Below, piece after piece: positions 2,566 through 20,202 of a stretch of DNA of 64,000 nt (position 1 is the stretch's first letter; each line of letters begins with the position of its first letter). The notes below the pieces were generated by a model. The model saw only the letters and a program-made list of their open reading frames with translations, did no database searches and had not been told where the DNA came from. Source of the stretch: Giardia intestinalis (taxonomy: Eukaryota); assembly GCA_000002435.2 (NCBI GenBank), contig CM018790.1, one strand, 5' to 3'. The position numbers and the translations under genes were made by a program.

Positions 2566-4102
2566 TTGCCTTTCAAACTTTTAAACTACGTATATCCTAT
2601 ACGTATTTTTCAGATAGCATGACTGATAAGGCTTCTCTTTGTCCCATCTGAGATCGGAGAACCCGACCGTACCACACTTCGCGAAGATGTGTTTGTCTCA
2701 AACAGCATCAGGGTCACATATTCACCAGAAGAGGACGGGGGTTTGCCTGATGAAGAAGGCGACGTGTCCTCTGAGGCTCGATACAGACCCCGCTTGCTAG
2801 CTGCTACTGTGACAGGCCTATGTGTGCTTGCTGCCGCATTTCTTGGGGGAGCATTCAAGGAGTAGAGAAACCCATATCTTATACTGAGAAAGGCCGAAGA
2901 GAGGGTCTCAGATACAGGTGAAAGGATCCTTCCTTCAAAGATACTTTAGTAACACTGGTGTAGACAGAAGCCAAGAAGGCTGAATCTAATTTGGATAGTT
3001 ATGTCATTGTAACACCACCCAATAGCTTGCTGAGAATTAGGACTTTGCCAGTGGGGTGTGTGGTTGTGCTTGAAGTTGAGCCACACGGAGTTGATGGTTA
3101 GACTACAAAGTAGTCGAGTTGAAGCTGTTACAACTCCAGCGTATGGGAAGAATGCAAGTGGGCGAGTTGATCACTCGTTAGCTGTTCTATCCTTGGCCAA
3201 ACCACTTGGCCGTTCGCGTTCATCCTGTATATAAGATAGTGAATGCGCATGTAACCCTCAAGAAATGCTTTATGGGAGAAGCAGTGTAAGCGTATCGAGG
3301 AACAGAAGCACGGAGACTTCTCTTAGCTACATCAAGCAAATGCTAAAGAGGGCTGCTAGTCGGAGAGTGCTTTTGGATCTGCAGTAGGATGGCGAGCAGG
3401 CATCTCTCTTGTGGAGCCGTGTGATGCCCGTTATTTGGCATGCAAAGAAGATACCATCAGGCTTAGCCAGAAACAGCCGAACAGCCTTTCATATGGTCTA
3501 CCGGAGTCATTCAATACACAAAGACGAGGCACTGTCTCATTACCACAGCGGTCTTGACAAACCCAGGCGTGCAAATGCCAACAATGCAAGCGGGACAAGT
3601 ACCATATCGATAGAGACTTGGATCTCAAAAGCAAACAGAGAGCACCGACCGCTACAGCGTGTGCTTATGCTGTCATGTATCTAACACCAGCAAGTATAAT
3701 TAGTAACAGGTCACTTGTAGGGAGTCATTGACTGCAGTGTAGCAGTGAGCAAAAGATCTAGCGTCCATTATTTGTGATTCTTAAATGCGCGAACGTTGTT
3801 CACAGTTAATAGACTACTCCGAAGGTGCCAGGCACCGAAGAATGTACGGCTAGACGTGGCGGCCACAAATCATGTACAGAAACATCAAACTAAAAAGTAG
3901 GCGGTTACGGGCGACTTTCATGGATGCATTCAAGGAATGACTGAGGCATTGTTAGGCCTGCATAATGTATCTATCGCAGGAGAGATACAGGAGCTGATAG
4001 ACACGTAGCTTACTACAATAAGTCGACAAGCAAAGCGTGGTTCAGGAGGATGCGAACCACTGTTGCATATATTAGGTTGTTGGGTTATGCCCATAAGCAT
4101 CC

Positions 4103-7100
4103 TGTGGACCGAGGCCTGCGCTCCTACACTACAGTGCAGCGGGCGGACGAGGCAGAGCCTGAATGGTATCGGAATTCCGGGGCAAGGGCTGAGCCGCGAC
4201 TGAGAGAGCAGCCTGCAGAGGGTGGAGCATAGCTCTCTGCTAACTCGAGGCGGCACAACCTGGCAATAGGACGGCTAATCCAGCCGTATTGACGTCTGAT
4301 AGACGCACCGAATACGCACTTCATGACCTCCGAATATCGTATGATGTGTGCTGGACAAGGGCCTCCCGGTGCACTTCGAGGACAGGACTGTTTAGCTAAA
4401 GCTAGAAGAGCGGTTGAGTCGTTCCCATCGGCGGCGGATGCTGCCCTGTGGACGCATATTTAAGGCTGCATCCCTTCGACTGAGCAGACAGCCGCTGGGT
4501 TACGTGCGAGCGGCCCAGGGTCTCGCCTGCCGCCTGTCCGGGCCAGTCAGCAGCTAGACTCGACATGCAGATGGAAGCCATGATAACGGACGCCGTCACG
4601 GAGGTCCGCCGTTTACTACTAGAACGGACGTGTCCGTGGCGGCCACCGTCTCCTAGAACAGCGCCCCCCCGCACAGGGCCGGCTATGTCGCGCCAGCTTG
4701 CTCGATAAGGGGCATGGGGGTCCCTTACGACGCCCTTCGGCATCTGCCGTGTCATAGGTACCCATGGCCACGAGCAGCTCAAGGGACGCAGCTATGTGGG
4801 CAGGGTAGCGTATTCATGGAGGGGCAGCTGCTTCACCTGTGCATGGCGGCGCCGGCCAGCACGTCTAGCTGCCCCACTGGCGACCACTCCTTCCCTGTGC
4901 TTGCCACAATGGGAGAGCACGTGCGCCCGTAGACCGGCAGATGCCGTGCTGGTCCTCTCGAGCAGTAGGCGCATCCTTGCGTGACATTCAGCGTGGACCA
5001 GATACCATGACCTGGGCCATCGCTACTGGCAAAGCAAGTGCTGATTGCAGCAGGGACGCCCGCCGCCCTCCAAGATAGACCAGCAACTTGCGTGTGAGGC
5101 TAGCGATGGGGCCTGCGCACCAGCTGCTATGAGCCCAGCCTTCCGGGCATCTAGATCACAGCACACTCGTCAAAGATGCACACTCATTTGCATACTCGCT
5201 GCTAGCGTTGGACAACTGCGAGGTGTCTGTCTCCGGCCGCGCTTGCCTTAGTGCTGGTCCCTGGTGATACGCCTCAGCCGAGGAGGCTATCCGTACGCGG
5301 CAGTTCCCGGAGAGAAGGCAGGGGTGACCGGCGGGCCAGGGAGATAGGACTAGCACTAGCGAGTCCAGCCATCGGCCCGGGTTGCACAAAGGACGCCTGT
5401 AGTGCCTCCCCGGCTTCTGAGCATGGAAGGGCTGTGGGGTCTGCAGATGAGACGGACGCTGTCTTTTGATTTTATGTGTTTGTAGCAGCATAGTATTTAT
5501 CGGGGTCTGCTCTGTCTGAAACCGAGAACATTCGCTTTCTTTCCTTATACAGGCTGGGATCGATTGTAGAGGTGTGCTGTGCAAACCGGTGGCAGTCAGC
5601 GTATCTACTATCCAAACGGATACTGCCTGCGTCCTCTTGTGGCAGACCACCACCAGGGCTCCAATCTGCACATCTGTTCTGGCATCTGTCGGCCAATCAT
5701 CACCTCCTGTCGAAGGATTGCTATACGTCACATATCTTGAGTCGTTCATCGACCAGGTGGTGCCATAAGCTCTTGTCTCCTACTTGTCCACCCGATGCTT
5801 ACTCTGAGCGCCGTCAATTCACTCACGTCTGCACTACTCATCTGGGTGCCCCCTACTCTTCAAGAGCACATGCCCGCAACCGATGCTCCGTATTACGAGA
5901 GGAGCCAGCCGGGCCACTGCGCTGTGCATAGCTCTCATGGGCGTATTGTTATGCGCGCCCAGCCTTTCCACCTGTAAGCTGTCACGCGGTCACATGTGCG
6001 CCAGCGCCGCCGAGCTTTCGTGGTCTCGAGGGGCCCCTGATGCATGGAGCGCTTGCGCAAAGTCCTTCCACCACTGACCCAAGCCGACCCCTCGCAAGAT
6101 CCTCAGCGGAGTTGCATCCGAGATGTGTGCTTGCATTGCTGTCCAGGTGCATGTGCCGGCCCTGGTGCTTCTCACAAGCTTGCGAGCATCAATCTGGCCT
6201 CTACCGAACCGTATCAGAAATCAACGTCAAGACGTGATCCCCTCAGTCAGGCTCTGCAGGCTCCCAGAGCTACGCACCAAAGGGCCGTTCTTCTTTGGTT
6301 GTGCAGTGTGGGGAGATCCATCGAGCTACCACACCCTTTCTGTGTGGCGTGGTTTACGACGGGGGACGGGATCCCTGTGCTCATTGTCTATCTGCCCAGG
6401 GCCAGCCACAGCCCGGGTTGACAATGACAAGCGAACATCGCCCGGCTCCTTGTCAGCAGGTGGGAACTTCCGCCACCCCAGTACCCACAGCAACGGGTGC
6501 CGATCACTGGCAGAAGGACAAGACACCCAGGCTCCCGTTCCTTCCACTGATGGTAGCCCACTATGAAGAGCCCTTTGCCGCCTGCACCAACAACCTCAGG
6601 CACTGTGGGTCCAAGTACTTCCATAGTGGACAGCGGTAGCACTATGATGATCTGGGGTGACAGGAGTCCTAGTTCACTGGCTCAGGAGACAGCACGCTTT
6701 GGGTAGTGCTTCCATCTTGTCCAGATCTGGGAGGGCTGGCTGCCTTCTGAGCCCACCTGGCACCTTGTCAGGTGATGGAGTGTCTTAAAGTATTCATTAC
6801 AAAAGATCAGAAATAGCGCCATGCATTCCCAATAGATCAGAGCGTCTCACGAGCTACTCTATGCTGATTCACACCTTTCATGGACCCTAGCGACCACTGT
6901 AACCTTCTTTCGGGATCTCGCAAGGGACTGTCCTTGAGTGCGATTCCCCCACGACAGCCGGAAGTCGCAGACATAATCCAAAGGGATGAGAGTACTACAG
7001 AGGCTGAGAGGAGAGTGCCGATGCACAGGGGTCCGCAGAGACCCGACTCGTACAGGGAAGGCGTGGATGCTGGCTCTCCAGGGATGTAGAGACACCAGGA

Positions 7101-8170
7101 AAGGAGCCGGCAGTGGGGCTTAGGCGCAGCAAAGGCACCCGATTCGTTCTCTGATTGGCCGCGAGGCAGCAGGCACATGGGGCGGCATCACCGCTTGTTT
7201 TTGGATTTTCTGTTTCCCTGCGCGTTGTGCAGGGGTCCGTAGTGGTTTGAGTATCACAGGCTACACATAGTAGATGCGTTTACTACCTAAGTCATATCTA
7301 AATCTATGCCTTTCCGCGGCAGAGGAACCACCAGCAGAGGAAGCCGACGAGGCCCCCGACGATGATGACAGCGGCCACGGCGATGCCTGCAATGGCGCCG
7401 GTAGAAAGGCCACTCTTGTTCGTGCTTCCGCCGGCACTGTCACCGTTCATGAGGTAGCAGAGGACGGAGCCTTGATTATTAGATGGAGGAGCGCAGCTCA
7501 TGCAGCCAGTAACTCCCTTGACACTTCCACTGTTGCTGTCACACGAAGTGCATGGTCCAGCTGCTGATCCGACCATATAGTACCCAGCTGCGCATGACGT
7601 ACACTTATCAGAGCTATCTGCAGTCGAGCATGTCTTGCAGGTCGAATGACACGAGGGGCATGCTCCATTATTGGGCTGAAGACCATTGGCACATGTTTCG
7701 CACTCACCCTTGCTATCAGCTAATGTGCATATCTGTTTGCCTGGCTGCTTGGTAGTTTCATAGCAGCCGCCTTCCTTGAGGAAGTAGTTAGCGGCGCATT
7801 TGGTACATGCTCCATTATTCATTTCAGTACAGAAAGCTACTCGTGCGTTACTTGTTGTACAGACCCCGTTCAGAGGAGCCTGATTATCCACTGAGCACTG
7901 GGAGCAGTAGTCTGTCCCGCCGATCCTTGCCCCACAGACCTTACATCCGTTCTTGTCCGCCGTACACGCATCCCCGCAGGTGCCCCCTTGCATAGGATCA
8001 CTACTTTTGTATATTAATGCCTTGCCAGCAGGACAAGCACTACACTGATTGTTGGCTGGCCCAACGCACTCAGCGCACTCAGGGCTGCATGCCTTACACT
8101 TCCTGTCAGTATCTCCATAGTATCCGCTGATGGCCGTGCAGTCGGATACGCACTGATTTGTTGGAGTGAG
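4103..8170. repeat. Left arm of a ~4,068-bp near-perfect inverted repeat. Contains the last ~880 bp of VSP coding sequence on the minus strand, its AGTAAAC poly(A) signal and ~3.2 kb of GC-rich ORF-poor sequence.
   Basis: Every ORF in 3930-8188 has an identical mirror ORF in 11626-15711 on the opposite strand with coordinates summing to 19814 (e.g. 4402..4782(-) <-> 15032..15412(+); 7304..8188(-) <-> end of 9211..12510(+)). Outer boundary checked by reverse-complement comparison at 4103/15711, inner boundary at 8170/11644. Confidence 0.92.
7278..7284 (-). terminator. Giardia-type polyadenylation signal AGTAAAC (AGTPuAAPy) downstream of the left VSP C-terminal segment (mirror of 12530-12536).
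   Basis: Reverse complement of gtttact at 7278-7284. Lies 20 nt past the stop of the 7304..8188 ORF. Confidence 0.5.
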
Positions 8171-8892
8171 GTAGTTCCACCATTGCACTCAGTATAGGCT
8201 TCGTTCTCTTTGCCTTCGTTATTGCACGTCTTACAGCCCGGTGTTATGCAGTTGCTAGTCGATTGGCATTCAGTTGAATCAGCGCTAGGCTGGAAGCCTT
8301 CACTGTATGTGCAAGCACCACCCTGATTGGACGAGTTGGCAGGGCAACTAGCAACGCACGACTTTTTGTTGAGGCCAAAGATGGTCTTATCAGAATCGGG
8401 GCACTCTTTGCATACTGCTCCGTCGCCGTTCTTTTCACAAGTCTTACAATCTTTTGCCCCGCCCGATGTGCAGGTAGTGCAGGTTTTCGCTGCTTCATCT
8501 ATGTAGTGTGTTGCTGGGCAATCGCCCTGATTAACGCACGTGCCTGTCTCACTGCCATCCTCCTTCTTCAGGTAGAGCGTGGCTCCAGTACACGAGGTGC
8601 ACTGCGTCTCTGTATTCTCGCATGTCTTACAGCTGGAAGCACATTTGCTGCATTTCTTTCCATTACGTGAGTCCACAAAATACCCATTATTGTAATCGGC
8701 CTCCTCGACACACGACGTTACGCCGTCGACTGTCTTGACAATCTTGCCGCCTCCACATGCATTGCACATCGCTGCCTTAGTGTTACTAGGATTAGCTGGC
8801 GTATTTGCTATCTGAATGAGTATTGTGTCGTGGTTTCCCGCAGCGGAGAAACCGCCACAGAAGAAGCCGGTGGGATCACCGGTGATAAACAT
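7304..8892 (-). pseudogene. Variant-specific surface protein (VSP) pseudogene or chimera. The N-terminal Cys-rich segment (8014..8892) is joined out of frame (-1 nt) to the duplicated VSP C-terminal region (7304..8188). No signal peptide after its first ATG.
   Basis: Two overlapping minus-strand ORFs in different frames. The upstream one is CXXC-rich (CKTC, CTSC, CKEC...). The downstream one is identical to the C-terminus of the intact VSP, including the TM segment and CRGKA tail. Comparison with the right copy shows a 1-nt length difference at the junction (left aatggtggaactacc vs right aatgataaaagttatc), which is exactly the repeat boundary. In-frame upstream sequence hits TGA with no hydrophobic leader. 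Confidence 0.6.
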
Positions 8893-9210: not shown

Positions 9211-12200
9211 ATGTTGCTAGGGCTTCTCCTATTTTGTGCAGTAGCACGGGCAAACTGCAAGGCCGGGAACACGCCCTCACAAGACGGGACGACGTGCGAG
9301 CCGAATGCAAACGGATGTGCCAAAGCCTTGACCGACGCCGGCTGTGCGACCTGCACCCCGGCGGGTGACGACCAGACGTGCCTCACCTGCAACCCCGGTT
9401 CAAACAAGGTCAGGCCGGACAGGAAGGGCTGCATCGCTTCGTGTCCCGCCAACTCGAACGAGGCAGGAGGAATCTGCACGTGCACGGCCGGGAACACGCC
9501 CTCACAAGACGGGACGACGTGCGAGCCGAATGCAAACGGATGTGCCAAAGCCTTGACCGACGCCGGCTGTGCGACCTGCACCCCGGCGGGTGACGACCAG
9601 ACGTGCCTCACCTGCAACCCCGGTTCAAACAAGGTCAGGCCGGACAGGAAGGGCTGCATCGCTTCGTGTCCCGCCAACTCGAACGAGGCAGGAGGAATCT
9701 GCACGTGCACGGCCGGGAACACGCCCTCACAAGACGGGACGACGTGCGAGCCGAATGCAAACGGATGTGCCAAAGCCTTGACCGACGCCGGCTGTGCGAC
9801 CTGCACCCCGGCGGGTGACGACCAGACGTGCCTCACCTGCAACCCCGGTTCAAACAAGGTCAGGCCGGACAGGAAGGGCTGCATCGCTTCGTGTCCCGCC
9901 AACTCGAACGAGGCAGGAGGAATCTGCACGTGCACGGCCGGGAACACGCCCTCACAAGACGGGACGACGTGCGAGCCGAATGCAAACGGATGTGCCAAAG
10001 CCTTGACCGACGCCGGCTGTGCGACCTGCACCCCGGCGGGTGACGACCAGACGTGCCTCACCTGCAACCCCGGTTCAAACAAGGTCAGGCCGGACAGGAA
10101 GGGCTGCATCGCTTCGTGTCCCGCCAACTCGAACGAGGCAGGAGGAATCTGCACGTGCACGGCCGGGAACACGCCCTCACAAGACGGGACGACGTGCGAG
10201 CCGAATGCAAACGGATGTGCCAAAGCCTTGACCGACGCCGGCTGTGCGACCTGCACCCCGGCGGGTGACGACCAGACGTGCCTCACCTGCAACCCCGGTT
10301 CAAACAAGGTCAGGCCGGACAGGAAGGGCTGCATCGCTTCGTGTCCCGCCAACTCGAACGAGGCAGGAGGAATCTGCACGTGCACGGCCGGGAACACGCC
10401 CTCACAAGACGGGACGACGTGCGAGCCGAATGCAAACGGATGTGCCAAAGCCTTGACCGACGCCGGCTGTGCGACCTGCACCCCGGCGGGTGACGACCAG
10501 ACGTGCCTCACCTGCAACCCCGGTTCAAACAAGGTCAGGCCGGACAGGAAGGGCTGCATCGCTTCGTGTCCCGCCAACTCGAACGAGGCAGGAGGAATCT
10601 GCACGTGCACGGCCGGGAACACGCCCTCACAAGACGGGACGACGTGCGAGCCGAATGCAAACGGATGTGCCAAAGCCTTGACCGACGCCGGCTGTGCGAC
10701 CTGCACCCCGGCGGGTGACGACCAGACGTGCCTCACCTGCAACCCCGGTTCAAACAAGGTCAGGCCGGACAGGAAGGGCTGCATCGCTTCGTGTCCCGCC
10801 AACTCGAACGAGGCAGGAGGAATCTGCACGTGCACGGCCGGGAACACGCCCTCACAAGACGGGACGACGTGCGAGCCGAATGCAAACGGATGTGCCAAAG
10901 CCTTGACCGACGCCGGCTGTGCGACCTGCACCCCGGCGGGTGACGACCAGACGTGCCTCACCTGCAACCCCGGTTCAAACAAGGTCAGGCCGGACAGGAA
11001 GGGCTGCATCGCTTCGTGTCCCGCCAACTCGAACGAGGCAGGAGGAATCTGCACGTGCACGGCCGGGAACACGCCCTCACAAGACGGGACGACGTGCGAG
11101 CCGAATGCAAACGGATGTGCCAAAGCCTTGACCGACGCCGGCTGTGCGACCTGCACCCCGGCGGGTGACGACCAGACGTGCCTCACCTGCAACCCCGGTT
11201 CAAACAAGGTCAGGCCGGACAGGAAGGGCTGCATCGCTTCGTGTCCCGCCAACTCGAACGAGGCAGGAGGAATCTGCACGTGCACGGCCGGGAACACGCC
11301 CTCACAAGACGGGACGACGTGCGAGCCGAATGCAAACGGATGTGCCAAAGCCTTGACCGACGCCGGCTGTGCGACCTGCACCCCGGCGGGTGACGACCAG
11401 ACGTGCCTCACCTGCAACCCCGGTTCAAACAAGGTCAGGCCGGACAGGAAGGGCTGCATCGCTTCGTGTCCCGCCAACTCGAACGAGGCAGGAGGAATCT
11501 GCACGTGCACGGCCGGGAACACGCCCTCACAAGACGGGACGACGTGCGTATCAGAGACGGCCTGCAATACTCCCAACTGCAAGGCATGTGATAACCCGAA
11601 GACTGACAGAGAGGTCTGTACTGAATGTAATGATAAAAGTTATCTCACTCCAACAAATCAGTGCGTATCCGACTGCACGGCCATCAGCGGATACTATGGA
11701 GATACTGACAGGAAGTGTAAGGCATGCAGCCCTGAGTGCGCTGAGTGCGTTGGGCCAGCCAACAATCAGTGTAGTGCTTGTCCTGCTGGCAAGGCATTAA
11801 TATACAAAAGTAGTGATCCTATGCAAGGGGGCACCTGCGGGGATGCGTGTACGGCGGACAAGAACGGATGTAAGGTCTGTGGGGCAAGGATCGGCGGGAC
11901 AGACTACTGCTCCCAGTGCTCAGTGGATAATCAGGCTCCTCTGAACGGGGTCTGTACAACAAGTAACGCACGAGTAGCTTTCTGTACTGAAATGAATAAT
12001 GGAGCATGTACCAAATGCGCCGCTAACTACTTCCTCAAGGAAGGCGGCTGCTATGAAACTACCAAGCAGCCAGGCAAACAGATATGCACATTAGCTGATA
12101 GCAAGGGTGAGTGCGAAACATGTGCCAATGGTCTTCAGCCCAATAATGGAGCATGCCCCTCGTGTCATTCGACCTGCAAGACATGCTCGACTGCAGATAG

Positions 12201-12510
12201 CTCTGATAAGTGTACGTCATGCGCAGCTGGGTACTATATGGTCGGATCAGCAGCTGGACCATGCACTTCGTGTGACAGCAACAGTGGAAGTGTCAAGGGA
12301 GTTGCTGGCTGCATGAGCTGCGCTCCTCCATCTAATAATCAAGGCTCCGTCCTCTGCTACCTCATGAACGGTGACAGTGCCGGCGGAAGCACGAACAAGA
12401 GTGGCCTTTCTACCGGCGCCATTGCAGGCATCGCCGTGGCCGCTGTCATCATCGTCGGGGGCCTCGTCGGCTTCCTCTGCTGGTGGTTCCTCTGCCGCGG
12501 AAAGGCATAG
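9211..12510 (+). CDS. vsp: Variant-specific surface protein (VSP), intact, 1099 aa. Has signal peptide MLLGLLLFCAVARA, ~10 identical 75-aa Cys-rich tandem repeats, conserved C-terminal Cys-rich region, a TM segment (GAIAGIAVAAVIIVGGLVGFLCWWFL) and the CRGKA cytoplasmic tail.
   Basis: ATG at 9211; many CXXC motifs; GGCY-like motif; C-terminal ...CWWFLCRGKA* is the invariant Giardia VSP tail; AGTAAAC poly(A) signal 20 nt after the TAG stop. Confidence 0.92.
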   Translation: MLLGLLLFCAVARANCKAGNTPSQDGTTCEPNANGCAKALTDAGCATCTPAGDDQTCLTCNPGSNKVRPDRKGCIASCPANSNEAGGICTCTAGNTPSQDGTTCEPNANGCAKALTDAGCATCTPAGDDQTCLTCNPGSNKVRPDRKGCIASCPANSNEAGGICTCTAGNTPSQDGTTCEPNANGCAKALTDAGCATCTPAGDDQTCLTCNPGSNKVRPDRKGCIASCPANSNEAGGICTCTAGNTPSQDGTTCEPNANGCAKALTDAGCATCTPAGDDQTCLTCNPGSNKVRPDRKGCIASCPANSNEAGGICTCTAGNTPSQDGTTCEPNANGCAKALTDAGCATCTPAGDDQTCLTCNPGSNKVRPDRKGCIASCPANSNEAGGICTCTAGNTPSQDGTTCEPNANGCAKALTDAGCATCTPAGDDQTCLTCNPGSNKVRPDRKGCIASCPANSNEAGGICTCTAGNTPSQDGTTCEPNANGCAKALTDAGCATCTPAGDDQTCLTCNPGSNKVRPDRKGCIASCPANSNEAGGICTCTAGNTPSQDGTTCEPNANGCAKALTDAGCATCTPAGDDQTCLTCNPGSNKVRPDRKGCIASCPANSNEAGGICTCTAGNTPSQDGTTCEPNANGCAKALTDAGCATCTPAGDDQTCLTCNPGSNKVRPDRKGCIASCPANSNEAGGICTCTAGNTPSQDGTTCEPNANGCAKALTDAGCATCTPAGDDQTCLTCNPGSNKVRPDRKGCIASCPANSNEAGGICTCTAGNTPSQDGTTCVSETACNTPNCKACDNPKTDREVCTECNDKSYLTPTNQCVSDCTAISGYYGDTDRKCKACSPECAECVGPANNQCSACPAGKALIYKSSDPMQGGTCGDACTADKNGCKVCGARIGGTDYCSQCSVDNQAPLNGVCTTSNARVAFCTEMNNGACTKCAANYFLKEGGCYETTKQPGKQICTLADSKGECETCANGLQPNNGACPSCHSTCKTCSTADSSDKCTSCAAGYYMVGSAAGPCTSCDSNSGSVKGVAGCMSCAPPSNNQGSVLCYLMNGDSAGGSTNKSGLSTGAIAGIAVAAVIIVGGLVGFLCWWFLCRGKA
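9262..11547 (+). repeat. In-frame tandem array of ~10.2 identical 225-bp units inside the VSP gene. Each unit encodes 75 aa (...AGNTPSQDGTTCEPNANGCAKALTDAGCATCTPAGDDQTCLTCNPGSNKVRPDRKGCIASCPANSNEAGGICTCT).
   Basis: Identical shadow ORFs recur every 225 nt (9344, 9569, 9794 ... 11369) on the plus strand, and the minus-strand ORF 9153..11582 shows a matching 75-aa periodicity. No unit-to-unit differences visible in the translations. Confidence 0.93.
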
Positions 12511-15500
12511 ATTTAGATATGACTTAGGTAGTAAACGCATCTACTATGTGTAGCCTGTGATACTCAAACCACTACGGACCCCTGCACAACGCGCAGGGAA
12601 ACAGAAAATCCAAAAACAAGCGGTGATGCCGCCCCATGTGCCTGCTGCCTCGCGGCCAATCAGAGAACGAATCGGGTGCCTTTGCTGCGCCTAAGCCCCA
12701 CTGCCGGCTCCTTTCCTGGTGTCTCTACATCCCTGGAGAGCCAGCATCCACGCCTTCCCTGTACGAGTCGGGTCTCTGCGGACCCCTGTGCATCGGCACT
12801 CTCCTCTCAGCCTCTGTAGTACTCTCATCCCTTTGGATTATGTCTGCGACTTCCGGCTGTCGTGGGGGAATCGCACTCAAGGACAGTCCCTTGCGAGATC
12901 CCGAAAGAAGGTTACAGTGGTCGCTAGGGTCCATGAAAGGTGTGAATCAGCATAGAGTAGCTCGTGAGACGCTCTGATCTATTGGGAATGCATGGCGCTA
13001 TTTCTGATCTTTTGTAATGAATACTTTAAGACACTCCATCACCTGACAAGGTGCCAGGTGGGCTCAGAAGGCAGCCAGCCCTCCCAGATCTGGACAAGAT
13101 GGAAGCACTACCCAAAGCGTGCTGTCTCCTGAGCCAGTGAACTAGGACTCCTGTCACCCCAGATCATCATAGTGCTACCGCTGTCCACTATGGAAGTACT
13201 TGGACCCACAGTGCCTGAGGTTGTTGGTGCAGGCGGCAAAGGGCTCTTCATAGTGGGCTACCATCAGTGGAAGGAACGGGAGCCTGGGTGTCTTGTCCTT
13301 CTGCCAGTGATCGGCACCCGTTGCTGTGGGTACTGGGGTGGCGGAAGTTCCCACCTGCTGACAAGGAGCCGGGCGATGTTCGCTTGTCATTGTCAACCCG
13401 GGCTGTGGCTGGCCCTGGGCAGATAGACAATGAGCACAGGGATCCCGTCCCCCGTCGTAAACCACGCCACACAGAAAGGGTGTGGTAGCTCGATGGATCT
13501 CCCCACACTGCACAACCAAAGAAGAACGGCCCTTTGGTGCGTAGCTCTGGGAGCCTGCAGAGCCTGACTGAGGGGATCACGTCTTGACGTTGATTTCTGA
13601 TACGGTTCGGTAGAGGCCAGATTGATGCTCGCAAGCTTGTGAGAAGCACCAGGGCCGGCACATGCACCTGGACAGCAATGCAAGCACACATCTCGGATGC
13701 AACTCCGCTGAGGATCTTGCGAGGGGTCGGCTTGGGTCAGTGGTGGAAGGACTTTGCGCAAGCGCTCCATGCATCAGGGGCCCCTCGAGACCACGAAAGC
13801 TCGGCGGCGCTGGCGCACATGTGACCGCGTGACAGCTTACAGGTGGAAAGGCTGGGCGCGCATAACAATACGCCCATGAGAGCTATGCACAGCGCAGTGG
13901 CCCGGCTGGCTCCTCTCGTAATACGGAGCATCGGTTGCGGGCATGTGCTCTTGAAGAGTAGGGGGCACCCAGATGAGTAGTGCAGACGTGAGTGAATTGA
14001 CGGCGCTCAGAGTAAGCATCGGGTGGACAAGTAGGAGACAAGAGCTTATGGCACCACCTGGTCGATGAACGACTCAAGATATGTGACGTATAGCAATCCT
14101 TCGACAGGAGGTGATGATTGGCCGACAGATGCCAGAACAGATGTGCAGATTGGAGCCCTGGTGGTGGTCTGCCACAAGAGGACGCAGGCAGTATCCGTTT
14201 GGATAGTAGATACGCTGACTGCCACCGGTTTGCACAGCACACCTCTACAATCGATCCCAGCCTGTATAAGGAAAGAAAGCGAATGTTCTCGGTTTCAGAC
14301 AGAGCAGACCCCGATAAATACTATGCTGCTACAAACACATAAAATCAAAAGACAGCGTCCGTCTCATCTGCAGACCCCACAGCCCTTCCATGCTCAGAAG
14401 CCGGGGAGGCACTACAGGCGTCCTTTGTGCAACCCGGGCCGATGGCTGGACTCGCTAGTGCTAGTCCTATCTCCCTGGCCCGCCGGTCACCCCTGCCTTC
14501 TCTCCGGGAACTGCCGCGTACGGATAGCCTCCTCGGCTGAGGCGTATCACCAGGGACCAGCACTAAGGCAAGCGCGGCCGGAGACAGACACCTCGCAGTT
14601 GTCCAACGCTAGCAGCGAGTATGCAAATGAGTGTGCATCTTTGACGAGTGTGCTGTGATCTAGATGCCCGGAAGGCTGGGCTCATAGCAGCTGGTGCGCA
14701 GGCCCCATCGCTAGCCTCACACGCAAGTTGCTGGTCTATCTTGGAGGGCGGCGGGCGTCCCTGCTGCAATCAGCACTTGCTTTGCCAGTAGCGATGGCCC
14801 AGGTCATGGTATCTGGTCCACGCTGAATGTCACGCAAGGATGCGCCTACTGCTCGAGAGGACCAGCACGGCATCTGCCGGTCTACGGGCGCACGTGCTCT
14901 CCCATTGTGGCAAGCACAGGGAAGGAGTGGTCGCCAGTGGGGCAGCTAGACGTGCTGGCCGGCGCCGCCATGCACAGGTGAAGCAGCTGCCCCTCCATGA
15001 ATACGCTACCCTGCCCACATAGCTGCGTCCCTTGAGCTGCTCGTGGCCATGGGTACCTATGACACGGCAGATGCCGAAGGGCGTCGTAAGGGACCCCCAT
15101 GCCCCTTATCGAGCAAGCTGGCGCGACATAGCCGGCCCTGTGCGGGGGGGCGCTGTTCTAGGAGACGGTGGCCGCCACGGACACGTCCGTTCTAGTAGTA
15201 AACGGCGGACCTCCGTGACGGCGTCCGTTATCATGGCTTCCATCTGCATGTCGAGTCTAGCTGCTGACTGGCCCGGACAGGCGGCAGGCGAGACCCTGGG
15301 CCGCTCGCACGTAACCCAGCGGCTGTCTGCTCAGTCGAAGGGATGCAGCCTTAAATATGCGTCCACAGGGCAGCATCCGCCGCCGATGGGAACGACTCAA
15401 CCGCTCTTCTAGCTTTAGCTAAACAGTCCTGTCCTCGAAGTGCACCGGGAGGCCCTTGTCCAGCACACATCATACGATATTCGGAGGTCATGAAGTGCGT

Positions 15501-15711
15501 ATTCGGTGCGTCTATCAGACGTCAATACGGCTGGATTAGCCGTCCTATTGCCAGGTTGTGCCGCCTCGAGTTAGCAGAGAGCTATGCTCCACCCTCTGCA
15601 GGCTGCTCTCTCAGTCGCGGCTCAGCCCTTGCCCCGGAATTCCGATACCATTCAGGCTCTGCCTCGTCCGCCCGCTGCACTGTAGTGTAGGAGCGCAGGC
15701 CTCGGTCCACA
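11644..15711. repeat. Right arm of the ~4,068-bp inverted repeat (mirror of 4103-8170).
   Basis: Same as left arm. One confirmed difference: right 12304 g vs the complement of left 7510 t, giving VSP residue A vs T (GVAGCM vs GVTGCM). Confidence 0.92.
12530..12536 (+). terminator. Polyadenylation signal AGTAAAC (AGTPuAAPy consensus) for the VSP gene.
   Basis: agtaaac located 20 nt downstream of the TAG at 12508-12510. Confidence 0.55.
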
Positions 15712-15909
15712 CTTCAGTGTTACCCATTCCCATAGTGCAATCCGTCACATTAGAAGATCAAGGATGTTTTAGCTTAGTCTTTGCAACCATCTATGAAGAG
15801 TGCTTCGCAAAGGAAAGAACATGGCAAAACTTTATTGGGACTTTGTCCAGCACTCTTCTAAGCCTAGAATCCGCATTGCCAACGACTAGGGAAGTATCGA
15901 ATGTTCTAG

Positions 15910-16862
15910 GAAACCGCTTGGAAGCACAGCCCACGATATGTTGCCCTGCAAGAGCCTTTCCCTTTAACTCGGCGCATTCAGCCATGCACTCCCACCTCTA
16001 TAGAATTCCGAGACGTCTGCTTTTCCTACAAGACGGGCTGCGATATTCTACATGGCTTGACCCTGTTTGTTCATCCCGGTCAGAAGGTTGCTATCGTGGG
16101 AGGTCGGGGATTGGCAAGTCCACGATCATCAACCTCTTGACGCGGCTATACACCACACCCCAGCATCAGGACACTTCGTCGCCCGGAATCTATCTCAATG
16201 GCAGGGCTATAGGGTCCATCCCACGCGAGGAGCTACGGAGGCTTATAACAGTCGTCCCGCAGGATAACATACTCATCAGGGGCTCTGCCACGGACAACAT
16301 CGCCTATGGACAGCCTCGCAAGCTCCCGGGCTCCCACGCAGAAGAGGAGCAGAGGCGCTACATCCGAGAAGTCATTCGGCTATGCTACGAGGCTTCCCGT
16401 GTTGTTGCGGCTGAAGAGCTCCTGGGAGACGCACCATACAGTGGAACCCTGCAGGGCCTTTCTGGGGGACAACGCCAACGGGTAGGAATTGCCAGAGCTG
16501 TCGCACGTGGAGGCAGCGTTCTTGTGCTCGACGAGGCGACGTCGGCACTCGACGAAGAGACAGAGAAGCGGGTCCTCCAACAGCTATTCCGCTCACTGGA
16601 CCCCAACCAGAGCGTCGTCATTATCAGTCACAGACTCTCCACTCTCCGGTATGTCGACCTGATTTATGTCCTAGATAATCCAGATGGCAGTGGAGCGCGC
16701 GTGGTAGAGTCAGGCTCGTACGACTGGTTCGTTGCCGAAAGCCAATATCTGAAGGATGCAGGCCAGGATATCTCTGACCTTGTGAGTAACTGTGGCTGTA
16801 GCAGCGCAGGTGTTACCCCAGGCTTCTCCCATGCAACTCTTGATGCAAAGGGGGATCCGTAG
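15910..16862 (+). pseudogene. ABC-transporter C-terminal nucleotide-binding-domain remnant (ABCB/MDR-like NBD). No start codon or transmembrane domain, and a 1-nt deletion (G-run ~16098-16104) splits the Walker A motif between two frames.
   Basis: Frame +1 (15910-16110): ...SIEFRDVCFSYKTGCDILHGLTLFVHPGQKVAIVGG. After the shift, frame 0 continues: SGIGKSTIINLL...IAYGQP...LSGGQRQRVGIARAV (ABC signature)...VLVLDEATSALD (Walker B)...ISHRLSTL (H-loop). The long 15558..16862 ORF only seems to start inside the inverted repeat because the repeat's GC-rich DNA reads open in that frame. Confidence 0.7.
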
Positions 16863-16903
16863 AAGCAAAGCACGCCTGGTGGCGAAGACGAGTAAAAATA
16901 AAA

Positions 16904-17500
16904 ATGCCAGCAAATGAACACTGCGCAGATCTGATTTCTCGCCTGTTATATTTGCGCTCCCTACAAGCCCTGTACATAAACAGACGCGTCGAAAAAACGG
17001 TCTACATGAAACAGATAAATGACCTTTTTGGTATTCCAGGATCCCAAGAGGGGCCCATTCAAATCCTACTCAAAAGCCTAAAAATTGGAACACTTAGTGA
17101 ACTTCGCAGGTTGCTGAAGAACTACGAGATAGATTGCACTGAAATATCGTCTATTGAATACATTCTGCTTGAGCGCAAAGTCGTCAGTGGGGAGTATTGC
17201 CAGAAGGTAGATAAAAATACCAGGGAGCTGCTCGAATGCTTGTATGAAACAATAAACCTCCTAACGCCCAATTCGCCCCTAAGTTATGATCAACTTCTAA
17301 CGTATGGCAATAATCTGGTGTCCAAAGCAAAAAAACTCACAGATGGCGTCAACTCAACGTGGCCAGTACTCAAGGAACTCGAAGGCTTAGTAGAACAGAT
17401 AGAGCATGAAGCTAATTTGAAAACAAACATCTGTCCAGCAGATTTAAAAAGTGCATTTGCAGAACGTTTAAAAAGCATATATGATAAAATATTCTGCTGA
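16904..17500 (+). CDS. Hypothetical protein (198 aa). Stops at a TGA that is in frame with, and 3 nt before, the next ORF.
   Basis: ATG at 16904; no recognisable motifs. Confidence 0.4.
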   Translation: MPANEHCADLISRLLYLRSLQALYINRRVEKTVYMKQINDLFGIPGSQEGPIQILLKSLKIGTLSELRRLLKNYEIDCTEISSIEYILLERKVVSGEYCQKVDKNTRELLECLYETINLLTPNSPLSYDQLLTYGNNLVSKAKKLTDGVNSTWPVLKELEGLVEQIEHEANLKTNICPADLKSAFAERLKSIYDKIFC

Positions 17501-17503
17501 CAA

Positions 17504-18274
17504 ATGATAAAGCTTAGACTAGAGGACAGTAAATCGCACATTCTGAAGGCAGGAGATGGCGAGTTAGTGGACGCTTTGGACCATACAGGGGAACAATCTG
17601 CAAGGGTGATGAGGGCATCACCTTTTGCGGTTCCATACCCTACCAAAGCAGACGCGTCTGTCTATAAGTATCTCTGCTACCTGGAGTTTCTTCTGAAGCT
17701 CCAGAGGAGGTGCCATGGCTCTCAAGAGGTGGAAACCGAAATTCATGCCGTGTTGAGCACAAAGGGCCCGATCGTTAGAGGATGTTCTCTGCTGCACATC
17801 AGGACGATGGATAGTCTAGTTCGTCGCCTCAAATCGTTCTTTATAGACTTTCAGAACTGCTACGATGCAATTACATTGGTTGGCAAAGAGCTATTTGTGG
17901 GAGACAACATTGTCTGTCCACAGGTAGATAGAGATGAACTTCTATCAAGCTTTTATGTGCTTATTGGGCTTCTCAACGAAAGATCTTCACCGGCTTATCT
18001 CGAGGAAGTCTATTACTCCATCTGGGGGCTTGTTCGACAGATAGATGGTACTCAAGCAATTCAAGATGCCTTCTTCACAGAACGGAATGCACTCGTTGGC
18101 ATCTTGCAGGAGCTTTATGGTTATGTAAAGCAAAAAGAGAAGGAAACTGCGATAGACTTACCTTCGCAGATTGGAAAGCCTACCCAGCGTCTACTTGATA
18201 TTGCTCTCCGTAAGCGTTTACTCGAGCAGCTTGTTCCCCTCTACAAAGCGATGCATGCTCAAGTCAACGTCTGA
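17504..18274 (+). CDS. Hypothetical protein (256 aa), same frame as 16904..17500.
   Basis: ATG at 17504 immediately after TGA-CAA; no recognisable motifs. Confidence 0.4.
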   Translation: MIKLRLEDSKSHILKAGDGELVDALDHTGEQSARVMRASPFAVPYPTKADASVYKYLCYLEFLLKLQRRCHGSQEVETEIHAVLSTKGPIVRGCSLLHIRTMDSLVRRLKSFFIDFQNCYDAITLVGKELFVGDNIVCPQVDRDELLSSFYVLIGLLNERSSPAYLEEVYYSIWGLVRQIDGTQAIQDAFFTERNALVGILQELYGYVKQKEKETAIDLPSQIGKPTQRLLDIALRKRLLEQLVPLYKAMHAQVNV

Positions 18275-18348
18275 CCTGCCATACTAGCGAATGGGCCCGC
18301 CGAACTTGAAAAAGGACAATCAAGCAACATGAAAATTCCAAAAAAGAG

Positions 18349-20202
18349 ATGGCGTCTGATGTGGTTATCCAGGAAAACTATGAGATTCTAGACGTAATAG
18401 GCCAGGGAGGCTTTGGCAAAGTATACAAAGTTAGGTATATTCCCACGGAGGCGTTGTACGCCTACAAGCTGATAAGCTATGCCAATGAGACCAGTGAGGT
18501 CCAGGGTCTTATAGAGTCGGAAATCAAGCTTACAAGGCACCTTTCTCATCCTAATATCATCAAGTTCCACCATGTTTACCACTCTGAAGAGCGTAAAGAA
18601 TACCATATTATTATGGATCTTTGCGAAGGCGGGGACCTTCGCCAGTTCATTGACAAGCGGCAGAGGATGCAGACTTCCCTAGAGGAGGAGCTTATATGGC
18701 TGTATATGGGACAGATCCTGCTGGCTCTAGCTTACTTACACTGCCCATTCAAGAGCGGAATCCAGCAGCACGGGCGCATAATTCACCGGGACATCAAGCC
18801 TGCTAATATTTTCATTAAAGGAAGCAATACACTAATAGTTGGAGACCTGGGGATTTGTAAGGACATTGGTCGCCACTCCTCTACTGACGCAAAGATTGGT
18901 ACTCCCGCTTACATGGCCCCCGAAGTCCTCATGAACGTTAAGCAGGGCTATAACGAGAAATCGGATATCTGGTCTCTGGGCCTGATTGTGTACGAGTTGT
19001 GCACTTTTGAAAGATTAGTAAGCGGTGCGACGGTAGCTGATGCAATCGAGTCCATAGAGTACATAAACTTCCCTATCATCGTTGAGGGCTATAGTCTGGA
19101 GCTCGTGGAAGTGATTAATGGAATGATCGATCCAAATATTATGACTAGATTTTCAGCTCATGACTTGCTAGCTCATCCGCGGTTGTGTCCGTACATCAAG
19201 CGGCTCTTAGGACCTAGCGTCACTATCGCTACCTTTACTTATGGAGGAGATCCGTTGCTTGACAAGCATAGCTATAGTTACGGCCTCCAAACTGAAGATC
19301 ACCGGGTCAATGCCACGACACCTTGCTCTGCTAAGAATGATCCTAGCTATAGCACGTCACTAGCAAACATTGCTCTTATGGCCCCAGGTAGCATTGCAGC
19401 AAAGATCTTCAATCATACTCCTCTTATGATTGCTGCCGAAGCAGGAGACCTCTGCGGTGTAGAGGCACACAAGGCGGTGTACTCAAGGAATACAAATACA
19501 CGTGGGTATACTGCGCTGATGCTGGCTGTGGAACAAGGACATATGAAATGCGTCAAATCTCTTTTGGGCGTTGAGGCAGGCCACCAGGCAAACGATGGAA
19601 CAACTGCATTAATCATTGCGCTGACTCGAGGATATACCGACATCGCTAAGCTTCTTTTCCCCCTGGAAGCAGCCATAAAAGCCTACGATGGACGCACGCC
19701 TTTGATGATAGCTGTGGAAAGGCATCACTCGGTACTGATTAAGCCCCTCGCAAAATACTCTGCCGGTGAACAACTTGCTGACGGAACGACGGCTCTCATG
19801 ATCGCAGTCCAACTATTGGATGCCGTGTCCGTAAAGGCGCTTGCCAAGGCAGAATCCGGCATAGCTACTGACAAGGGCAAAACGGCCTTAATGTTAGCTT
19901 CTGAGCAAGGAAGCCTTGCACTGTGCAAGCTTCTAGCTAAAAACGAAGCCGGGCTACAGATGCATGATGGAACAACTGCACTAATGATTGCTCTCGAGCG
20001 GGGGTATGAAGAAGTAGTTGCCCTATTATACAGACGTGAGAAGGACATCTGCAAGGACGATGGCACGACGCCCCATCAACTGGCTGCAAAGACAAATAGA
20101 CAGGACATAATGCAGATATTTACCTCTAAAAAGGACAATACTTTAATAATATCTAAAAGGGTGAAGGAGAGTGTGACGGAACTTAAAGAGCACAGATCTT
20201 AG
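18349..20202 (+). CDS. NEK-family Ser/Thr protein kinase with C-terminal Giardia-type ankyrin repeats; predicted catalytically active.
   Basis: G-loop GQGGFGKV, catalytic Lys (YAYKLI), HRDIKPAN catalytic loop, DLG, GTPAYMAPE activation segment. C-terminal ankyrin units (GYTALMLAVEQGHMKCVKSLL, DGTTALIIALTRGYTDIAKLL ...). Confidence 0.85.
   Translation: MASDVVIQENYEILDVIGQGGFGKVYKVRYIPTEALYAYKLISYANETSEVQGLIESEIKLTRHLSHPNIIKFHHVYHSEERKEYHIIMDLCEGGDLRQFIDKRQRMQTSLEEELIWLYMGQILLALAYLHCPFKSGIQQHGRIIHRDIKPANIFIKGSNTLIVGDLGICKDIGRHSSTDAKIGTPAYMAPEVLMNVKQGYNEKSDIWSLGLIVYELCTFERLVSGATVADAIESIEYINFPIIVEGYSLELVEVINGMIDPNIMTRFSAHDLLAHPRLCPYIKRLLGPSVTIATFTYGGDPLLDKHSYSYGLQTEDHRVNATTPCSAKNDPSYSTSLANIALMAPGSIAAKIFNHTPLMIAAEAGDLCGVEAHKAVYSRNTNTRGYTALMLAVEQGHMKCVKSLLGVEAGHQANDGTTALIIALTRGYTDIAKLLFPLEAAIKAYDGRTPLMIAVERHHSVLIKPLAKYSAGEQLADGTTALMIAVQLLDAVSVKALAKAESGIATDKGKTALMLASEQGSLALCKLLAKNEAGLQMHDGTTALMIALERGYEEVVALLYRREKDICKDDGTTPHQLAAKTNRQDIMQIFTSKKDNTLIISKRVKESVTELKEHRS

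Follow-up and report, generated by a model that had tools for sequence, protein, structure and literature searches.

An ABCB-type nucleotide-binding domain (NBD) without a usable start codon lies at 15944–16862 of a 64,000-nt stretch of the Giardia intestinalis WB C6 chromosome sequence (hereafter the window), just outside one arm of a palindrome that carries a VSP gene. Its position raises the questions of whether a complete transporter gene once stood here, what removed the rest of it, and whether anything of what is left is still in use. We conclude that the segment 15708–16862 is probably a unitary pseudogene, what assemblage A retains of a second ABCB-like half-transporter gene, and we refer to it as psi-ABC-2; a literature search for psi-ABC-2 returned no description of it.

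psi-ABC-2 is situated between the VSP KAE8302486 and GL50803_008348. An exact ORF look-up identified the VSP at 9211–12510 as KAE8302486.1 and the 198-aa ORF downstream of the NBD as GL50803_008348, which is followed by GL50803_008349 and then by a NEK kinase. The accessions KAE8302486 and KAE8302487 are consecutive, so the annotation has no protein in the interval from the VSP to GL50803_008348. The two arms of the palindrome (4103–8173 and 11641–15711) are 4,071 nt each and 100% complementary, and position 15711, which the first-pass annotation had used as the start of the feature, is the last base of the right arm. psi-ABC-2 overlaps the arm by only 4 nt (15708–15711) and so belongs to the flank rather than to the interior of the repeat (table 1).

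Table 1. Features of psi-ABC-2 and its surroundings (window coordinates)
Feature	Position	Strand	Remarks
Right arm of VSP palindrome	11641..15711	.	Left arm is 4103–8173
Mechanical 434-codon ORF, GTG start	15558..16862	+	Mixed content
Decayed remnant of ABC-2 codons ~49–120 (TM1 region)	15708..15918	+	Frame 0, no stop codon
Internal-deletion junction	15919..15943	+	~410 codons (~1.2 kb) of membrane domain gone; limits approximate
N-terminal NBD part, native frame 1	15944..16097	+	LQEP...IEFRDVCFSYK...GQKVAIVG
Segment common with the GL50803_17315 locus	15944..17028	+	95–97% identity; NBD, spacer and first 125 nt of GL50803_8348; 3' boundary taken from DH
Longest ATG-initiated ORF, 292 aa	15984..16862	+	MHSHLYRIPRR...; first 38 codons out of frame
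G-run GGG with −1 frameshift	16098..16100	+	First Gly codon of Walker A
Rest of NBD, frame 0	16098..16862	+	Walker A GRSGIGKST, Q-loop, LSGGQ, Walker B, H-loop, stop
GL50803_008348 (KAE8302487.1)	16904..17500	+	Conserved downstream neighbour; anchors synteny with A2, E and B

The palindrome has some features of its own. Its unique centre (9256–11580) holds at least ten perfect copies of a 225-nt tandem repeat within the 1,099-aa VSP KAE8302486. The 3' end of this VSP falls within the right arm, and on the left, mirrored side two ORFs (8014–8892 and 7304–7993), which correspond to the old entries XP_001704632 and XP_001704633, take the place of a single VSP coding sequence. The outer 3.2 kb of each arm (12511–15707 and its mirror, 4107–7303) has neither an annotated gene nor a Pfam match, a Pfam search of the outer-arm ORFs (13251–15409) having found no domain, and its part outward of 13777 shows conservation and collinearity with P15 (assemblage E) at ~68–73%. 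Adam et al. (2010; PMC2996952) have described identical inverted vsp pairs of WB in which divergence sets in 139–729 bp from the coding regions. The palindrome analysed here is likewise a VSP-bearing inverted repeat with an abrupt divergence point, which psi-ABC-2 marks at the outer end of the right arm. Unlike in those pairs, the arm extends 3.2 kb past the VSP stop (12510 to 15711), far longer than their 139–729-bp flanks, and ends at a broken non-vsp gene.

The NBD matches the Pfam model ABC_tran (PF00005) with an E value of 6.5e-18 and 66 bits against a cut-off of 25, and its best matches outside Giardia are bacterial proteins of the subfamily-B/MsbA type (36–43% identity), as expected of a subfamily-B NBD. 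The match to PF00005 in a single frame covers profile positions 18–137 only. Although Walker A, Q-loop, LSGGQ, Walker B and H-loop are all present in translation, they cannot be read together with the preceding strands in one frame because a −1 deletion at 16098–16100 leaves the strands before Walker A in frame 1 and the rest in frame 0. Frame 1 (15946–16103) reads ...LQEPFPLTRRIQPCTPTSIEFRDVCFSYKTGCDILHGLTLFVHPGQKVAIVGG, the first part of the NBD, and frame 0 continues with GRSGIGKST...LSGGQ...VLVLDEATSALD...SHRLST to a stop at 16860–16862. Upstream of the NBD, frame 1 contains a TAG at 15907–15909 that is followed by no in-frame ATG. The first-pass annotation had described a start-less NBD outside the right arm with a 1-nt deletion in the G-run of Walker A, the rest of which (GIGKST, LSGGQ, SHRLST) runs in another frame to 16862, and had read the 434-aa ORF 15558..16862 as a chimera; we arrive at the same anatomy. 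The 434-codon ORF starts with a GTG inside the arm and is therefore a mechanical chimera, consisting of arm sequence, the remnant of the ABC-2 TM1 region described below, 51 codons read out of frame and, from Walker A on, the NBD. The −1 deletion places the TM1 remnant and the segment from Walker A to the stop in one frame, so this ORF is present in WB and not in DH. The longest ATG-initiated ORF, of 292 aa, is absent from the current WB proteome annotation. The approximately six N-terminal helices that a half-transporter has in the same ORF are lacking, and only a decayed fragment of ~70 codons (15708–15918) is left of them; the Pfam model ABC_membrane does not match even the intact relatives.

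One intact relative of the NBD is found in WB itself. XP_001710177.1 (current version KAE8303138.1) is encoded on another contig of 1,973,847 bp, where it adjoins GL50803_0017314, and from this neighbouring gene we infer that it is GL50803_17315, an AbcB half-transporter (Jedelsky et al. 2011; PMC3044749). XP_001710177.1 is among the ABC transporters compared by Xiong et al. (2015; PMC4649718). The paralog has the same motifs as psi-ABC-2, and its NBD and 3' flank match window positions 15944–16862 with 97.2% nucleotide identity and, after the frameshift, 248 of 253 aa (98%), whereas immediately upstream of 15944 similarity is at chance level. Unlike psi-ABC-2, it lies on another chromosome and is full length (867–933 aa).

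A second intact relative is found in assemblage B. A scaffold from an ENA metagenome (L020) contains an intact ABC ORF of 849 aa followed by the orthologs of 8348 (P0186), 8349 and the NEK kinase, and it is collinear with window positions 15949–19031 at 73.7%. QR46_4400 from an assemblage-B genome (cluster P0188) is the same protein with 96% identity, so an intact gene is encoded at the genomic position of psi-ABC-2, directly upstream of the 8348–8349–NEK orthologs. Its NBD is ~75% identical to that of the window. Because the membrane domains of the QR46_4400-type ABC and GL50803_17315 are only 31% identical, the assemblage-B gene is a second paralog, which we name ABC-2. Whereas QR46_4400 is an intact ORF, the WB copy is without codons 1–48 and ~121–530, has no start codon and is frameshifted. 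psi-ABC-2 thus shows both an intact syntenic ortholog (L020/QR46_4400 upstream of the 8348 ortholog) and the disabling lesions that characterise a unitary pseudogene (no ATG before the NBD, a ~1.2-kb deletion and the −1 frameshift), and the suggestion of the first-pass annotation that a real ABC transporter gene left a scar here is borne out.

The same annotation had taken the NBD to be without any transmembrane domain. A tblastn search of the window with the 933-aa paralog and the 849-aa assemblage-B protein found no membrane-domain match, the best other hit having an E value of 0.77, and tblastn searches for the membrane domain in a small database using BLOSUM62 and BLOSUM45 gave only marginal matches. 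At the DNA level, nhmmer with the membrane-domain coding sequence of ABC-2 as a query had a single match in the 64-kb window, at 15708–15918 on the plus strand (E value 1e-4; 1.7e-5 in the small database), and the corresponding region is also matched by this query in P15 and in both the orthologous (T1) and the secondary (T2) copy of the remnant in DH (A2). It corresponds to codons ~49–120 of QR46_4400, which are the only membrane-domain sequence with detectable similarity to the window. In a Smith-Waterman shuffle test the remnant scored z = 5.9 in WB and z = 8.0 in P15, and two adjacent arm segments scored z < 1. The similarity is weak (13 bits; about 55–60% nucleotide identity over ~210 nt) and becomes clear only with nhmmer at the DNA level together with the shuffle test, and the four sequences that support it are orthologs and paralogs of one another and not independent.

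The alignment of the remnant stops at ~15918, and homology to the NBD begins between 15928 (tblastn, ABC-2) and 15944 (blastn, paralog). No match anywhere in the window, left flank included, was obtained with the first 400 nt of L020 or with the stretch for codons ~121–530. Neither of the two ABC membrane domains matched the left flank at 2566–4102, in agreement with the first-pass annotation, and a membrane-domain fragment is likewise absent elsewhere in the window apart from the one on the right side at 15708–15918. The earlier picture of an NBD that simply abuts the cut has to be modified, as codons ~49–120 remain and a separate deletion of ~1.2 kb joins this fragment to the NBD.

The high identity to GL50803_17315 with sharp boundaries at 15944 and 17028, together with the further truncated copies in DH, could also be explained if a partial segmental duplication of that gene had put a copy of its 3' end upstream of 8348, where a complete gene had never existed. 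We consider this unlikely, given that assemblage B has a complete and different ABC gene at exactly the syntenic position and that 15708–15918 resembles the membrane domain of ABC-2 and not that of the paralog. Moreover, the paralog locus of DH carries a 125-nt 5' fragment of GL50803_8348 that is dead and ends in a stop, which indicates that sequence has moved at least once in the reverse direction, from the 8348 locus to the paralog locus. On the DH contig concerned (AHGT01000017, 12836–13556) this fragment spans ~37 codons before the stop and lies downstream of the intact DH paralog; the ORF after it resembles what we take to be the C-terminus of an inositol-phosphate kinase/ATP-grasp protein.

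An intact transporter across this position in other isolates would speak against the reading of the first-pass annotation, and one appears only in three Logan contigs (L005–L007), in which an intact ABC gene runs straight into GL50803_8348 and the sequence downstream shows 100% identity to the window. These contigs are best explained as chimeric joins through the common 3' flank that are favoured in transcriptome data, in which only expressed branches are covered. L005 and L007 derive from SRR2642198 and SRR2642199, two runs of RNA-seq on WB-1B (PMC5224939). Of the 19 contigs that include the paralog, 13 end at the position equivalent to 16961 of the window, and 8348-bearing contigs often start at 16098 or 16828, break points that are expected of a collapsed repeat. 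Given the RNA-seq source of two of the contigs, the end of other paralog contigs at the 16961 equivalent, and the presence of the intact gene on another contig of the long-read reference, we rejected L005–L007 as intact alleles of this locus. P0001 (465 aa), considered as a stand-alone NBD protein, was rejected as a contig-truncated piece of a full-length gene. The run SRR2642198 also yielded a 29.6-kb contig (L005/L016) that covers many genes on both strands, as pervasive transcription or carry-over of DNA into Giardia libraries would lead one to expect; at repeats, contigs of this kind can be chimeric.

The copies in other lineages allow the lesions to be placed relative to the splits between assemblages. 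DH is collinear with window positions 14500–17600, and P15 is collinear with 13777–15989, that is, both across 15711 and across the internal deletion; within the right arm, collinearity comprises the outer ~1.9 kb in P15 and the outer ~1.2 kb in DH. The junction between arm and ABC sequence and the internal deletion are thus common to DH and P15 and predate the A/E split. Further lesions differ among the lineages. The A1 copy in WB is marked by the −1 frameshift, P15 by a 181-nt deletion (window 16457–16637) that removes the signature and Walker B, and in DH the frame is open but has no ATG and is annotated from a TTG only. The two DH proteins annotated as "Transporter", ESU36688 and ESU37035 (271 aa), are T1 and T2, respectively; both have the same upstream junctions as the WB remnant and, unlike it, no frameshift in Walker A, and with their TTG annotation they are also without an ATG. 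In the P15 contig ACVC01000078 the site of the 181-nt loss is at 3268–3271, the sequence is frameshifted thereafter, and P15 has no gene call there. T2 occupies positions 671–2146 of the DH contig AHGT01000035, where it carries window positions 15421–16895 including 290 nt of the arm; its neighbours there, a 1135-aa ORF and a kinase, are unrelated genes. The frameshift is also present in the A1-type T2 (L015).

At the junction itself, homology to ABC-2 starts at 15708 (CACACTTCA, where assemblage B has CAGACTTCA) and the arm ends at 15711, so ABC-derived sequence begins at the outer end of the arm, possibly with a 4-nt microhomology. The sequence comparison suggests that juxtaposition of the arm sequence removed the 5' end of the gene. 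No ABC-like sequence was found at 4102 and leftwards, and either the palindrome may have been inserted into the gene or the region may have been translocated. The first-pass annotation had attributed the cut to the event that created the VSP palindrome; ABC sequence within 4 nt of the arm end agrees with this, but the junction also occurs in DH and P15 and has no tie to the 100%-identical palindrome that WB has today. A recent palindrome-forming event in the WB lineage that cut an intact ABC transporter and left the NBD alone would fit the distance of at most 4 nt as well as an arm identity that looks recent. It is nevertheless distinctly improbable, since the identical arm/ABC junction and internal deletion are found in A2 and E, the second copy in DH combines 290 nt of the arm with the remnant, and arm identity can be kept by arm-to-arm conversion. 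Since the cut is older than the A/E split, the WB arms must owe their perfect identity to maintenance or renewal and not to a recent origin. Nor was the gene simply destroyed: the family persists, with GL50803_17315 as an intact paralog on a different chromosome and with an intact ortholog in assemblage B.

The close similarity of the psi-ABC-2 NBD to that of GL50803_17315 calls for an explanation, because the two genes of which they are parts differ strongly in their membrane domains. Within assemblage A the NBD copies are 95–97% identical to each other and ~75% identical to those of B; paralogs are therefore more alike than orthologs, and the similarity has sharp boundaries at 15944 and at 17028, the latter taken from DH. 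In addition, DH_T1 and DH_F have in common a block of derived variants at 16078–16330 that is absent from the WB copies, and the variant table of the NBD copies is mosaic overall. On the basis of these patterns we infer that the NBD and the 3' flank have been homogenised by ectopic gene conversion between the remnant(s) and GL50803_17315. The dN/dS ratio between the NBD of the WB remnant and that of the paralog is 0.15 (17 synonymous and 8 non-synonymous changes), and it is 0.15–0.3 in pairwise NBD comparisons, not near 1 as in the neutral pattern of a unitary pseudogene. Conversion from a selected paralog would produce such low values without any function of the remnant; they would also fit selection on the remnant. 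The end of a membrane domain of the GL50803_17315 type (55% aa identity) is encoded at positions 1–528 of the assemblage-B-like Logan contig L001 (SRR28368764), which has an in-frame stop at a distance of four codons from its start. This domain end is joined to an NBD and 8348 with 97.7% identity to L020; either B also homogenises both NBDs or the contig is chimeric.

There is a slight chance that psi-ABC-2 and T2 matter as exchange partners that shape and possibly inactivate the NBD of GL50803_17315, or that the −1 deletion made an expressed 434-codon chimera. It is very unlikely that the remnant is still useful, either as an NBD-only protein starting at the ATG at 15984 or as the product of the 434-codon ORF. 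Frame 0 is open over 15558–16862, dN/dS is low and the DH copies keep open frames, all of which a useful product would explain; yet no ATG precedes the NBD, the ATG-initiated ORF is without the N-terminal β-strands and the A-loop tyrosine (its Pfam match beginning at profile position 18) and has no counterpart in the current WB annotation, P15 has lost the signature and Walker B, and the low dN/dS is explained by conversion from the selected paralog. Furthermore, the WB-type Logan contigs found via the 8348 protein all carry the variants of the paralog upstream of 8348 and not those of the window, two of their source runs being the confirmed WB-1B RNA-seq data. We therefore regard psi-ABC-2 as probably non-functional.

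The frameshift in Walker A is genuine. In an alignment of five sequences (WB, DH, a second A2-like scaffold, P15 and an assemblage-B contig) WB reads ATCGT-GGGAGG where all other copies have GTGGGG or GTAGGG. The G-run is GGGG in DH T1, T2 and F, in L003, in the assemblage-B contig L001 and in the WB paralog, and AGGG in P15. The Logan contig L014 (SRR12825854), which spans the end of the arm, the remnant and part of GL50803_8348, is 99.7% identical to window positions 15207–17266 with 0 gaps and carries the deletion, and L015 (SRR32129102) has the same −1 deletion in the second genomic copy; both also carry WB-specific substitutions clustered at 16032–16112. Because the deletion thus occurs in two independent short-read assemblies, the loss of one base from the G-run is real, and a homopolymer error of the long-read WB assembly, which a deletion in a G-run that is one base longer in all other lineages might suggest, is extremely improbable given that de novo short-read contigs from other SRA runs share it along with the adjacent substitutions and that 292-aa ORFs dependent on the deletion are found in Logan. 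The cluster at 16032–16112 comprises seven WB/A1-specific substitutions, all of them transitions, within 80 nt around the deletion, which are common to L014 and L015 and absent from every other copy; it may be the result of a single mutational or conversion event.

These observations are consistent with the following history. Once the lineage had split from B, and before A and E separated, sequence from a VSP region, now the outer end of the right arm, would have been joined to ABC-2 at codon ~48/49, possibly at a CA(C/G)A microhomology, which would have cost the gene its promoter, its start codon and codons 1–48. An internal deletion of ~1.2 kb would then have taken out codons ~121–530, and the short membrane-domain fragment left between the two junctions would have decayed. 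Recurrent ectopic conversion would have kept the NBD and ~170 nt of its 3' flank 95–97% identical to GL50803_17315, and each lineage would have acquired a separate lesion, the −1 deletion in A1, the 181-nt deletion in P15, and in DH an open frame without an ATG.

psi-ABC-2 is an ordinary kind of pseudogene with a well-resolved and unusually readable history. It calls for caution in two respects, as short-read and RNA-seq assemblies mis-join GL50803_17315 to GL50803_8348, and ESU36688 and ESU37035 of DH are annotated from TTG, not ATG, on remnants that consist of the NBD only. The locus would serve as a clear case of gene conversion in which the partners are a pseudogene and a functional paralog on different Giardia chromosomes, and it places the outer junction of one VSP palindrome earlier than the A/E split, so that the identity of its arms in WB reflects maintenance. 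Finally, assemblages A and E have probably lost a second ABCB-like transporter that assemblage B keeps, and the loss of ABC-2 would thus constitute a difference in gene content between the two human-infective assemblages.
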